In this document: positions 51,801-60,800 of the stretch, in pieces
How the letters are laid out: each line of letters opens with the position of its first letter
Position numbering within the stretch: the stretch's first letter is position 1
Program-made: the position numbers
Assembly (NCBI RefSeq): GCF_057098645.1
Contig: NZ_CM169472.1
Strand: one strand, 5' to 3'
Length of the DNA stretch: 64,000 nucleotides

Positions 51801-54800
51801 CCTCCTTGATGGTGCAGTCCAGACGCAGATATTCCGCCTTCTCCATGGTTTCAGCAGTCGCCGGGGCAGATGAAATCATCACCTGCGTCAGCTGTGAACG
51901 TTCATACAAAGCAGACATTCTGCCTCCTGATAATAAAAAACCCGCACGCGGCGGGTTATGGGTTCTGTTGAAAAAATTACACCGTGACCTGAAATTCCAG
52001 GGTTGCACGGTAACAGCGGTTTTCCGGAATATAGCTCTGCATTTCACTGACGGATCCCGGGGCCAGCAGCATTATGGCTTCACGGGCGTCCTGACGTATC
52101 TGACGCGCCTGCGTCACAGTCCCGGCATAAACGTCTATCTGCACCGACACTGAGGACTCCGCCTGCCCGCCCATCACGTCCGCCGACACCGATGAAATCA
52201 GGCTGAAAACCACCCACGGAAGCGCCACCGACGGCCTGCCATCCAGCAGGGGGACCACATACGGGTACACCTGCCCGCCGGCAAGATGTGCCAGATGAGG
52301 ATACAAATCCGCCTCCGTCATCGTCTCAGTACCTCATCAATGGCCCGGTTCATCCGAGCAATCGCCACCTGTGCCGCCTGTTCACTGCGCACATCAAATG
52401 CCGGGCGCACAAACGGGTGCGGTGGCATATTCACGGTCCCCATTTCCACAAACCGCCAGTAGAAAGCATTGCGCGGGTTATCCGCCTTCATGGTGTTATC
52501 GCTGTTACCGGTGTCCGGATTAACACCCCGGATATGCACACCGGATTCCATCCCGCCATCGCGGGAGCACCGGGAAAGGACCACCACATTGCGGCGCAGT
52601 TTTCCCCTGCGTACCGGTGCCCGTGACACCACTTCTTCTTTCAGCACATTCGCACCCGCACGGGTTGCCTCACGCAGCACCCGGTTATTTTCCGCACCAC
52701 TCAGAAGCTGCAAATCGCGGCTGATGTCCTCCAGCCCCGAAAAATCCAGCAGGGTTTCGATCATTTTTCCCCTCCCAGCCGACAGAGAATTTCCAGACGC
52801 CCGCCGGTCGCATCCGGCACGGGCAGCCCGACAACGTTCAGGATCCGGTCACGCCATGGACCACTCAGCACATGAAGTCGTGACGCTGCCGTGATTTCCC
52901 GGCCGGACTGACCGCGCACCCAGATGCGGATTTCCGCCTGCGCCATTTCCGCACCGGACTGCATCCGCTCCCGGCTGCTCCTGCCACGGATATCCGCATG
53001 AATTTTCCCGCATGACACCCATTCTTCCGTCATTTCTCCGGCAGCATTACGGGTTAACACCGGGTTCAGAACACTTATCATCTGTGTCAGACGACCTGCA
53101 GATATTGCCATTCCTCCCTCCTCATAACACCGTCGGACAACGCAAATCGTAAATCAGAACAGATACAGAAAAGGGGAGTTCCCCCTGAATCAGCTCTTCC
53201 CGCTCCGCAAGATCCGGATTCCTGTACAGCATCCCGGTCAGGCGCATGGCAGCCCCCTTCATCCGGGTTAATGCCTCGCCCGGGATCAGTTCACCGTCCT
53301 CACGGATCACTTTATCCCGGCTGCCCTGAATGTAGGCCAGCAGCACGGCGGTAGCCTGACGAACCTTGTCCATCAGCATGTCATCATCCGCGTCATGGTC
53401 GACACGCAGATGTGCCTTGATCTCTTCCAGTGTCAGTAATGCCGTCATTTTCAGCCTCCTGCATCCCGCCCACGTTTTGCAGCCAGGGTCCAGGCTGATG
53501 AATGAGCTTCTCCGGGTTTATCTTCGGTCATACTGTTGCAGTGCCACAGCGAGCCCCCCCACGTCACCGTATCGCCGGGGTGGTAGGTTTCACCGGCTCT
53601 GAACACACCGCGGTAGAGCATCACCGGCAGGGAAAATGTTTTTTCCGTACACTGGCCACTGCTCTGCCGGATCACCACAGAGAACAACCGCTCATCCGTC
53701 ATGCTGACGTCGATATCCGCCACCCCGTCAACCAGGCATTCCCATCCCCGCATCCCGTGCGTTTTTTCATACGCCCGCCAGAGTCCACCCAGGTGTGTGG
53801 CATACGTGCCCCGGGGAAAGGATTTTTGAACGTCAATAGCGGGGAGCACTTCCAGTGCCGTGGCATCACGCCCGTCCTGCGGAGCCGGAAGGGCATTCAC
53901 CGCCTCCAGAACCGCCTGCTTCAGTACTTCCGGATCGTAATCACGACCGTCACTCGGAGCAGGGATATGGCTTACGGCCTCTTTCACCATCTGCTCAAGC
54001 ATCGGACGCACATCATCGGGGGTGATACTTTTGCCGTCCGCCGGTACCGGAATATTCGCAACCGCATCATTCACCGCCTGCTTCAGTACTTCCGGATCAT
54101 AATCACGACCATCACGCGGAACAGGAATATGGCTTACCGCCTCTTTCACCATCTGCTCAAGCATCGGACGCACATCATCGGGGGTAATACTTTTGCCGTC
54201 CGCCGGTACCGGAATATTCGCAACCGCATCATTCACCGCCTTCTGCAGAACATCCGGATCGTAGTCACGACCGTCGCGCGGAACAGGAATATGGCTCACT
54301 GCCTCTTTCACCATCTGCTCAATCATCGGACGCACATCATCGGGGGTGATACTTTTACCGTCCGCCGGTACCGGTATTTTCCCGACCGCATCATTCACCG
54401 CCTGCTGCAGTACATCCGGATCATAGTCACGACCATCACGCGGAACAGGGATATGGCTTGCTGCGTCCTTCACCATCTGCTCAAGCATCGGACGCACATC
54501 ATCACCCGTCACGCACTTCTGTAATACCACAGACTGAGAAGCCAGTTTTTCTTCAAACGTTTGTGCCTGCGCGGCTATTTTCTCCTCAAATGTACGCTGT
54601 AAATCCGCCAGCACCATGGCGAATTCTTCGCCCAGTGCACGAATAATGGACAGTTCCCGTTCCGTCATTTTCGCAGTATCCCCCTGAACATCGCTTTCAC
54701 CGCATCATGCTCTGTTTCACTGATTGCCTTATTACCGTCAGATGCGCCATCAGGCAGTTGTGCTGAGACTGTTTTCCCGGACGACGCGAACGGATCCTCA

Positions 54801-57800: not shown

Positions 57801-60800
57801 CAGTCCGCCTCCGTCCAGATAAGTGTATTCATGGGGCCGGAAGCCCACAGAAAGCCCCCTGACCAGCCCGGTCTTAATGGCAGCCCAGGCCTCATCCAGC
57901 CGGGCTGCCATCTGGGAGGGCATCCCCGGCTCCGGCTTCACCAGCATTGCCGTGATTTCCAGCCCTTCCCTGCCCCGACGCACCGTACACTGGCCTACAG
58001 GGCGGGAATGGTCATGCTGCCAGAGAAACGGGATCGTACTGCCAAACTCCGCCCCCTCCGGCTCCAGGATGTCACCATCCCGATCCGGAGAAGGCGTTGA
58101 CGCAATCCCGGTGATCACCCGTTCATCCTCACTGAAGGATTTCACCGTCAGCAGGGAACAGGCCCGTTTAAGAGTCACATCAGCCTCCTGAAAATAAAAA
58201 AACCGCCGCAGCGGTTCATGATGGTTACAGGGTGAGCAGGGTTATATGAAAAAAACCTCATACGCTTTCTTTTTCGGTTCCGGATTCAGGGACATCAGGG
58301 ACACCGCATTGAAGAGCGCCATCAGAGGGTCAATTTTTCCCCGTCCGCTGGCCTGTTTGGTGATAAGAATGGCGTTACCTTTAGGCTCCACCCGGGCATT
58401 GCCAACGCACCAGGCCATCAGTGGCTGACCACCATGCACCAGCACTCCCTCAGCCAGTTTGCGCTCGGTGGTTTTGATGGCCCCGCCCAGTTTCCAGCCC
58501 TGGCTTATCCCCACCACACTCTCATCGGGGATCCCGGCTTCCGCCAGTGAATCCAGAATCTGCCCCACACCTGACGGGTCAATACCGATATGATCCAGTA
58601 ACTCAGCCTCATGAATACGACGCACATACTCCGCCACTTCCGCCGTGTCATCCCCGACCCGACGGACAATCGTCATGTCTCCACAGGCCACAAAATCCTG
58701 AAACCGGGATGCCTCACTCTTCCGTCTGACCACCGCGGTTTCATGCACCCAGGCATGGCCCCAGCCCAGCCATTCGCGGGTTTCCCTGTCACGGCCAGTC
58801 ACGTACATTCCCAGCAGATCATCCAGGCCCCCGCCGTCAATCCCCACCGTCACCACATCAGCGCGCTGCAGGATATCGTCCAGGCTGACGCGCCTGCCCT
58901 GCTGCTCCCAGAAATCCGCCCCTGCCCAGCGGTCAGAACGCAGGGCAAGACCGATTTCCACATTGGCGTGTTTTGACATGAAACCGCGGAAAGTCTCTTC
59001 CCCGGCTTCCCGGGCTTTACGATACTCCCGGTACAGAAAGGCCTCATCCACCGAATAACCGAGATTCGGGTTAACCATGGCGAGGTTTTCCATCAGCAGG
59101 TGCTCACCGCTCTCCACCATTTCAGGAGGATGCTCAAAAATCACCGGCAGAAAATGTGGATCATGAATTTTACCGTCGCGCACATCCCGGGCGTACTGCA
59201 GTTTCTGCCTGAACACCCCGGCAGGCGGCTCATTTGACTGGGTGGTTGTGTACACCACAAACCCTTCCGGACGTGAAGCCAGCCCGCCAATGGCTTCACG
59301 TAACATGTCCTCCGCCTTGTACTGCTTGCCAAACAGCCACAGTTCATCAATCAGCGTCCCCACGGACTTGATACCGGACACCGTATTCGGATCGGCTGCC
59401 ACCACCTTCAGGGTGGTGTCCGTCACCCTGTGGGTGATGGTCCGGATATGTGTCTGCACCTGACAGAGGTCATCCAGATCATCGTCCCGTCGTACCATAT
59501 CCCTGGCAGGGTTGAAGGCGTTGGCTGCCACCTCCACTGTCGGGGCCAGAATCGTGTAACCCGCCGCCTGCCGCCAGTTCAGTAACAGTGCAGTCATCAT
59601 GATCCCCGCGGCCAGCGTGGACTTCGAGTTTTTCTTGGGGATAAGGATAAACACTTCCTTGATATGGCGAACACCGGTCTGCGCATCGTAGGAGCCAAAC
59701 AGGGCCGCCACCAGGTCAAACACCCACGGTGCACAGGACTCCCCGAATGTCGGGCTACCCGGTGCATCCACAATCCGCAGTTGTTTAAAAATCGCCAGTG
59801 CATGTGCAGCCTGGTCCGGATAAATCGGAGCCGGAATAATCGACAGCCCCTTTTTCAGGCGCTCTGCCCAGTCCGGGCAGGCCGTGCTCCACACAGGTAT
59901 CATCCGTTGCCCTCATTATCATTATTCACCACCAGGCGGGGTGGTGGTGGCACCGCAAAACGGTTAGCCGCTTTTTTCGCCGCGTCACCTTTTGCCGATT
60001 TTTTACCGGCATCCCCTTTTTTGTGGTGCGTGAACTGCGCCAGCTTATAAGCCGCATCCAGCGCCAGCCTGGGGTCGGTATTAATGTTCTCCACCAGAAG
60101 ACGCCCCATCGCTTTCACCGGATCGGGAAGACCGTCCTCCATATACTCAATACCAGGAGATATCACCACGGGCGGTGGCATCTCCGGATTTGTTTCGTCC
60201 GGCTGTGGTATTGCAGCCGCCTCACGGCGACGGGGTTTATCCTCCTGCTCTGATTTTTTCTGCCGGTAAACAGGAACCTCATCCACCTCCACCGTCTCGC
60301 ATTGTTTACGGGCTATAAACGCAAGCACCTCCGGATCTTTTGCCAGCTGCGAGCCTTTAACCCTGGCGGTCTTCGCCGAATAACCAGCGGCAATGGCTGA
60401 CGCTGTTTTGTTTTTCCCGGACATGAGCGCCAGCGCAAATTTTCGTTTTTGCGTTGTCAGCACAGCCTCCTCCCGGGTCCAGAACGCACTCAGCCGGGTA
60501 TGGTTCAGCCCATTTTTCCCGGCGTCTCATGCCGCAAATGTTAACTGCTGCCTGGTTAACATTTGCTGAAAAAGCCAGTTAACATTTTTTCCGCACAACA
60601 AACTGAATAATAAAGATAAAAACCGCAAAAATGCCCGGACAGCCAGTTAACATGTTAACTGCCCTGAAACGGGAATTTTTTCTCTGCGTGAGAGGGGGCG
60701 CGGTGTCCGGAGCGATCGTTTTTTTCGCCGGATGATCCCCCGTTACTTTATTCGAACCCCTTATAATGGGGTGTTAGCCAGCCAGACCCGGCATGATTAC

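Follow-up and report, generated by a model that had tools for sequence, protein, structure and literature searches.

How should a head-gene block be read in which one open reading frame (ORF) seems to encode both the prohead protease and the major capsid protein, and in which the portal gene comes after the capsid gene? The question is raised by a 64,000-nucleotide (nt) stretch of contig NZ_CM169472.1 (assembly GCF_057098645.1), here called the window, whose position numbers are used throughout. In phage HK97 the order is TerL, portal, protease and capsid, all separate genes, whereas the window has a single ORF of 645 codons ahead of the portal gene. A first-pass annotation, made from the sequence alone, left two ways out: either this phage lineage has a rearranged head module, or one of the calls is wrong. 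The second falls, since both calls are upheld, and the first stands, since the order is kept in relatives. The order terminase, protease-capsid, portal is real, and the strengths of the matches behind it are beyond chance. The block is the head-assembly block of a lambdoid Escherichia coli prophage of the BP-4795 or long-tailed Stx-phage type, and we consider our reading as a whole, with a fusion gene that yields two nested products, reasonably probable.

Profile searches and structure comparison show that one gene encodes four parts in this order: S78 serine protease, flexible linker, delta-like coiled-coil scaffold and HK97-fold capsid protein. The minus-strand ORF lies where the first-pass annotation had placed it, and its Peptidase_S78 match at the N terminus and Phage_capsid match at the C terminus are borne out by Pfam, NCBIfam and PHROG alike. 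The whole protein matches PHROG 617 (‘major head protein’) from end to end (E = 1e-257), is 99.5% identical to the protein of the Stx1a phage Stx1_499, and starts at a GTG with AGGAGG 5 nt upstream. In the protease part, PF04586 (Peptidase_S78) covers residues 48–153 (E = 1e-7), PHROG 80 (‘head maturation protease’) matches with E = 2e-39, and TIGR01543 scores 45.4 bits, under its whole-protein cut-off of 59; on these profiles, the S78 match is real yet divergent. His55 (codon 58014–58016) and Ser110 (codon 57849–57851) align with His65 and Ser114 of HK97 gp4, which we take to be the catalytic residues of that enzyme. Both residues, and several of the motifs around them, are at least 90% conserved among 116 diverse homologues. 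An AlphaFold2 model built on 116 diverse sequences reached a mean predicted local distance difference test score (pLDDT) of 85.9 (a 12-sequence alignment gave 47.5), and in it the N-terminal domain is compact at residues 17–153, with pLDDT above 90 over residues 20–150. Sequence searches of the PDB matched capsid relatives and no S78 protease structure, and the Foldseek list for the whole model consists mostly of capsids. Alignment and model together predict a catalytically intact S78 domain within the fusion protein.

Past the linker, the model has two helices (residues 195–223 and 229–262) with pLDDT of about 96, in a region that aligns with the N terminus of the EcCI2 capsid protein (9gyi). 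The modelled coiled coil at 195–262 resembles a delta-type scaffolding domain and would stand in for a separate scaffold gene; ORF calls and PHROG found no such gene among the ORFs of the module. The remainder of the protein is a capsid body. PF05065 (Phage_capsid) matches residues 386–635 (E = 1.4e-14), TIGR01554 (major_cap_HK97) matches residues 204–584 with 80.5 bits against a cut-off of 27.5, and a profile search against the PDB gave E = 3.8e-18. The predicted structure agrees: the top Foldseek matches of the body in the PDB are all HK97-fold capsids, among them Bxb1 (E = 9e-15) and HK97 itself (1ohg; E = 6e-10, target-normalised TM-score 0.64).

The gene downstream of the capsid gene encodes an HK97-family portal, as had been proposed. 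The 454-residue protein matches PF04860 (Phage_portal) with E = 4.8e-81, scores 355.9 bits against a cut-off of 112 for TIGR01537 (portal_HK97), and finds the solved portals of HK97 (8cez, E = 4e-21) and 9lbn (E = 5e-29). PHROG and NCBIfam searches of ten scanned ORFs of the module found no second portal-like ORF.

The complete head and neck block occupies 51977–60463 on the minus strand, by ORF calls and matches to PHROG and NCBIfam, and runs TerS, TerL, protease-capsid, small ORF, portal, 405-residue repeat protein and connectors. The TerL homologues of enterobacterial relatives have TerL_ATPase and TerL_nuclease domains. The order TerL, protease and capsid, small ORF, portal recurs in every relative examined that has enough flanking sequence, be the protease and capsid genes fused or split. 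It is found in phage BP-4795 and the Stx2a phage WGPS2, in prophages of Salmonella, Serratia, Pantoea, Yokenella and Enterobacter with capsid proteins 72–76% identical, in metagenomic contigs with fusion proteins about 45% identical, and in three relatives with separate protease and capsid genes (Burkholderia phage vB_FKKS2 and loci L096 and L097). Across the genomes compared, the portal-after-capsid order is a lineage trait, normal for a large phage lineage and not an error.

The fused gene and its downstream portal are already known, catalogued and routinely annotated. Over 53400–60500 the window is 96–97% identical in DNA to 95 phage records, mostly Stx1a-, Stx2c- and Stx2a-converting phages and PPompW prophages, and public records carry names such as ‘major head protein/prohead protease’. 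Of 5426 complete E. coli genomes, 1254 contain the head block. Proteins nearly identical to the fusion form a cluster of 9916 sequences, which NCBI calls ‘phage major capsid protein’ and JGI ‘HK97 family phage major capsid protein/HK97 family phage prohead protease’. A search of 1.84 billion representative proteins returned 1143 matches at E ≤ 1e-30; among the best 150 clusters, at 38–53% identity, the great majority are full-length fusions of 615–700 residues, and such fusions occupy more than 100 distant protein clusters. An alignment-based scan of IMG/VR found only relatives at 95–99% identity. NCBIfam has a curated model, NF045541 (‘prohead protease/major capsid protein fusion protein’), so protease-capsid fusions are an accepted class of annotation. 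The 645-residue protein scores 51.9 bits against its cut-off of 525; by this score it is a member of another fusion family, built on the same architecture. Literature searches found nothing specific on this fusion, its gene order, or virion proteomics of BP-4795 or Stx1-type phages.

The relatives with separate genes suggest how the fusion came about. In the Burkholderia phage, the stop codon TAA of the protease gene lies within TAAGGA and is followed, 13 nt later, by the capsid ATG. This junction, tcatttcaaTAAGGAttccttacgcATG, is one base apart from that of the window, tcttttcaTAAGGAaaagtcagcaATG; loss of one base removes the stop and joins the two frames at the same spacing. For each free-standing capsid protein, some fused protein lies nearer than any other free-standing one, which argues that fusion and fission happened repeatedly. 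From these comparisons, the fusion gene seems to have arisen from a pair of genes by loss of a stop codon, with fused and split states interconverted several times.

If the gene was once two genes, the place of the former capsid start is of particular interest. It falls at Met193, which is aligned with Met1 of the free-standing capsid homologues; these begin at residues equivalent to 193–197, and their genes directly follow a separate S78 protease gene (vB_FKKS2, L096 and L097). We surveyed this position in 111 fused proteins taken from distinct 50%-identity clusters, 38–76% identical to the query. Methionine is present in 101 of them, while the surrounding linker is not conserved, and the codons at four sampled valine or leucine exceptions are GTG, GTG, GTG and TTG, each with GGAG, GGAGG, AAGGA or AAGGAG 6–9 nt upstream. 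The window itself has a Shine-Dalgarno-like AAGGA at 57613–57617, separated from the ATG by a 10-nt spacer. In six distinct enterobacterial gene sequences AGGAA is kept before the ATG while the amino acids of the linker vary, and it is read in two codon registers (AAG GAA in the window, A GGA A elsewhere), which points to selection on nucleotides rather than on amino acids. Across ten genes, the pairing energy with the anti-Shine-Dalgarno sequence at the internal site lies in the top 0.3–19% of in-frame positions of the gene, and in all ten the RNA from −25 to +20 around the internal start is among the least structured 1–11% of windows (Fisher p = 6e-5 over six lineages). These patterns incline us, with moderate confidence, to the view that the fusion gene yields nested products, a 645-residue protein that carries the protease and a 453-residue protein free of it. 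The wider proposal gets just over half our confidence: that S78 protease-capsid fusion genes in general, across their more than 100 distant clusters, are nested pairs whose former capsid start is under selection, and that the fused and split states switch by one stop codon. We found no account of nested protease-capsid products in the searchable literature, and a conserved internal start inside protease-capsid fusion genes might be the only new element of this locus.

Several observations weigh against an internal start. Literature searches found no experimental data on protein products for this phage group. The internal Shine-Dalgarno sequence of the window is modest (−6.2 kcal/mol, rank 88 of 638), stronger ones precede other in-frame starts (GTG111 and ATG217), and the AGGAGG of the 5′ start is much stronger. 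Low structure and AT-richness could simply reflect a disordered linker rich in lysine, asparagine and threonine; methionine, valine and leucine are conservative replacements for each other; and a start site left over from the separate gene could survive without being selected if the fusions were repeated and recent. The Shine-Dalgarno comparison favours a single product, in which all capsid subunits would be made as the 645-residue precursor and processed in the procapsid, with the internal methionine and its Shine-Dalgarno sequence a relic or a structural feature. The precedent would be Gifsy-2, where the ClpP-scaffold-capsid protein reported by Effantin et al. in 2010 is usually read as being made as a full precursor in every subunit, and by our own rough estimate there is physically room for 415 protease-delta domains inside a T=7 shell. 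We consider a single product possible and somewhat doubtful. Were the site a relic, retention of a start codon in 101 of 111 clusters below 50% identity would be unexpected, and so would its specific replacement by GTG or TTG preceded by a Shine-Dalgarno sequence; the low structure seen in ten of ten genes is like that of a translation initiation region.

The other rivals question the calls themselves. An inactive protease, a degenerate domain serving as extra scaffold alone while maturation proceeds without proteolysis or by a host protease, would account for the sub-threshold TIGR01543 score and for the fact that no solved protease structure was matched by sequence. We think it very unlikely, given the conservation of the histidine, the serine and the nearby motifs and the confident fold of the domain. 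That the fusion is an artefact, whether a frameshift, a sequencing error or a decaying pseudogene in a defective prophage, would fit a prophage that is damaged elsewhere by insertion sequences (IS) and has split relatives. It is ruled out by conservation: BP-4795 and about 90 other phage records contain the identical 645-codon ORF, the near-identical cluster has thousands of members, and full-length fusions dominate the distant clusters described above, so that its probability is negligible. Equally negligible is the idea that the 454-residue protein is not the portal and that the true portal lies elsewhere; it has nothing in its favour other than the unusual position of the gene, and the portal profile and structure matches, together with the lack of another candidate among the ten scanned ORFs, rule it out.

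The assembly scheme that we propose for the two nested products is taken from the gp4/gp5 paradigm of HK97. Translation from the GTG at 58178 would give the 645-residue fusion, and translation from the ATG at 57602 the 453-residue delta-capsid protein without the protease, so that with two starts only some subunits would bear the enzyme. The capsid part would build the procapsid shell around the portal, with the protease and delta parts facing inward. The protease would enter the interior by covalent attachment, a link that would replace the C-terminal targeting tail used by HK97 gp4. Once enclosed, it would cut off both itself and the delta region, and the fragments would leave; the shell would then mature and take up DNA.

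Compared with known systems, the block is closest to BP-4795 and the long-tailed Stx phages (Marienburgvirus, Sawaravirus and the PPompW prophages), which have the same genes in the same order at 96–97% DNA identity. The shared set comprises HNH, TerS, TerL, the 645-residue fusion, the 73-codon ORF, the 454-residue portal, the repeat protein, Ad1 and Hc1; the repeat protein differs in copy number, with 405 residues in the window and 461 in BP-4795. With gp3, gp4 and gp5 of HK97 the block has in common an S78 protease with conserved histidine and serine, an HK97-fold capsid with an N-terminal delta-type scaffold, an HK97-family portal and downstream connectors. In HK97, the gp4 protease is reportedly delivered by its C-terminal tail, in work by Duda et al. 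from 2013. Gifsy-2, a lambdoid enterobacterial prophage, is said to encode a ClpP-like protease, a scaffold-like middle and an HK97-fold capsid in one gene (again from Effantin et al., 2010). The proteases differ, S78 in the window and ClpP/S14-like in Gifsy-2, and Pfam, NCBIfam and PHROG gave no ClpP/S14 or S49 match in the 645-residue protein. Gifsy-2 also keeps the lambda-like order, with the portal gene upstream. For nested products there are precedents in other systems. The C/Nu3 gene of phage lambda is a nested protease/scaffold gene with a long product that carries the protease and a more abundant short one, so that the protease comes in with a minority of subunits. In the herpesvirus UL26/UL26.5 pair, a long protease form and a short form share frame and C terminus, and the short form is about 10 times more abundant (PMC11565193). 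In both, what the two products share is a scaffolding protein in its own right, whereas here, where we infer the nesting, it would be the capsid protein with its delta domain.

Two hairpins flank the fusion gene. The upstream one, which is terminator-like, folds with −18.6 kcal/mol (z = −2.3), and an equivalent element, GCGGGTTTTTT, stands before the fusion gene of five enterobacterial relatives. The downstream one folds with −25 kcal/mol (z = −3.6), and a GGCGGGG...CCCCGCC hairpin is found in the same place in six relatives. A scan for terminator-like hairpins was not above background overall (10 found, 6.9 expected), and only these two were kept, on the strength of their conservation in relatives. 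Roles in mRNA stability or in the control of expression are possible; in HK97, putative terminators are annotated at equivalent positions around gp4-gp5.

Downstream of the portal gene, the ATG of the 405-codon ORF overlaps the portal stop codon (ATGA). The ORF contains about 3.7 copies of a 162-bp (54-residue) repeat at 53911–54503, and its length differs among close relatives by steps of 54 residues, with stop-to-stop lengths of 257 to 581 residues. The C-terminal domain of the protein has a weak match to CBM_5_12 (E = 0.005). In most relatives the same slot holds a protein of 238–410 residues, in one case with collagen repeats, and it is empty in Burkholderia phage vB_FKKS2 and locus L097. 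Possibly the 405-residue protein is a virion component that is fibrous or associated with the portal. Public records call it ‘portal’. A tract 15 nt before the portal stop is either G5 or G6, and G6 joins both ORFs into a protein of about 859 residues; such fused alleles are found in about a third of related loci (L006–L085). PHROG 2271 models the fused form, and as a consequence of such fused ‘portal’ entries the NCBI pipeline takes the two-gene form for a ‘frameshifted’ portal pseudogene. Because BP-4795 and distant relatives have portal and repeat protein as separate genes, the two-gene form is probably the ancestral, functional state. Programmed −1 frameshifting at G GGG G or A AAA UGA was also considered as a way of joining the two ORFs and was rejected, as the fused forms in databases are explained by the genomic G5/G6 difference.

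The small ORF between the capsid and portal genes is kept in relatives in both position and sequence, with 63 codons there and 73 in the window. Its stop normally overlaps the portal ATG (TAATG). In the window this is GAATG, and the change from TAA to GAA lengthens the ORF so that it extends 55 nt into the portal gene. The coordinates of all these features are collected in Table 1.

Table 1. Genes, protein domains and other elements of the head-gene block, as positions in the window
Feature	Position	Strand	Basis or remark
TerS, 187 amino acids	59900–60463	−	PHROG 641, E = 1e-68; position as BP-4795 ORF54
TerL, 553 amino acids	58242–59903	−	PHROG 9, E = 4e-147
Terminator-like hairpin	58190–58217	−	GAACCGC-TGCG-GCGGTT plus T-run; between TerL stop and ribosome-binding site of fusion gene
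Protease/delta-like scaffold/capsid fusion, 645 amino acids	56241–58178	−	GTG start
S78 (HK97 gp4-type) protease domain, residues 1–153	57720–58178	−	Pfam, PHROG 80
Disordered variable linker, residues 154–192	57603–57719	−	pLDDT below 50 at 154–189
Internal ATG (Met193), proposed second start	57600–57602	−	product would be a 453-residue delta-capsid protein
Delta-domain-like region, residues 193–290	57309–57602	−	helical hairpin 195–262, then flexible segment
HK97-fold capsid body, residues 291–645	56244–57308	−	Foldseek, profile search against PDB
GC-rich hairpin, no T-run	56205–56226	−	immediately past capsid stop codon
Small ORF, 73 amino acids	55975–56196	−	PHROG 829, E = 1e-38
HK97-family portal, 454 amino acids	54665–56029	−	PF04860, TIGR01537, PDB 8cez
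Repeat protein, 405 amino acids	53451–54668	−	tandem 54-residue repeat
Head-tail adaptor Ad1	53122–53448	−	PHROG and NCBIfam matches
Head closure Hc1	52761–53111	−	PHROG and NCBIfam matches
HK97 gp10-like	52318–52764	−	PHROG and NCBIfam matches
Tail terminator	51977–52321	−	PHROG and NCBIfam matches

The prophage that carries this block has been altered by insertion sequences. An IS110-family transposase gene (60969–62165, plus strand) lies between the HNH endonuclease gene (62205–62570) and TerS, which in BP-4795 are about 290 nt apart. An IS21-family element (IstA/IstB) has split the gene for the tail tape measure protein after codon 28; the first 28 residues agree with the BP-4795 protein and are followed by IS sequence (the region comprises 47868–50286 on the plus strand, and 50236–50469 and 44583–47819 on the minus strand). 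Because the tape measure gene is interrupted, this copy of the prophage is probably defective. The chromosomal backbone at 1–20000 of the window (rRNA operon, clpB, pssA, kgtP) shares 99.9% identity with E. coli O145 genomes, whereas the head module reaches only about 97% with its best match among complete E. coli genomes.

The head module is thus a rediscovery, present in public records for years (BP-4795, NC_004813) and carried by roughly a quarter of complete E. coli genomes, and it is best used as a sanity check that an odd gene order can be a lineage trait and not an error. A comparable caution applies to the portal and repeat-protein pair, which pipelines flag as ‘frameshifted’ and whose two-gene form distant relatives nevertheless indicate to be ancestral and functional. 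If the internal start is real, two competing ribosome-binding sites within one gene would set the dosage of the protease in a large phage family. Such an arrangement would be a bacterial parallel to herpesvirus UL26/UL26.5, and it would affect how these genes are annotated and how they are expressed for capsid engineering.

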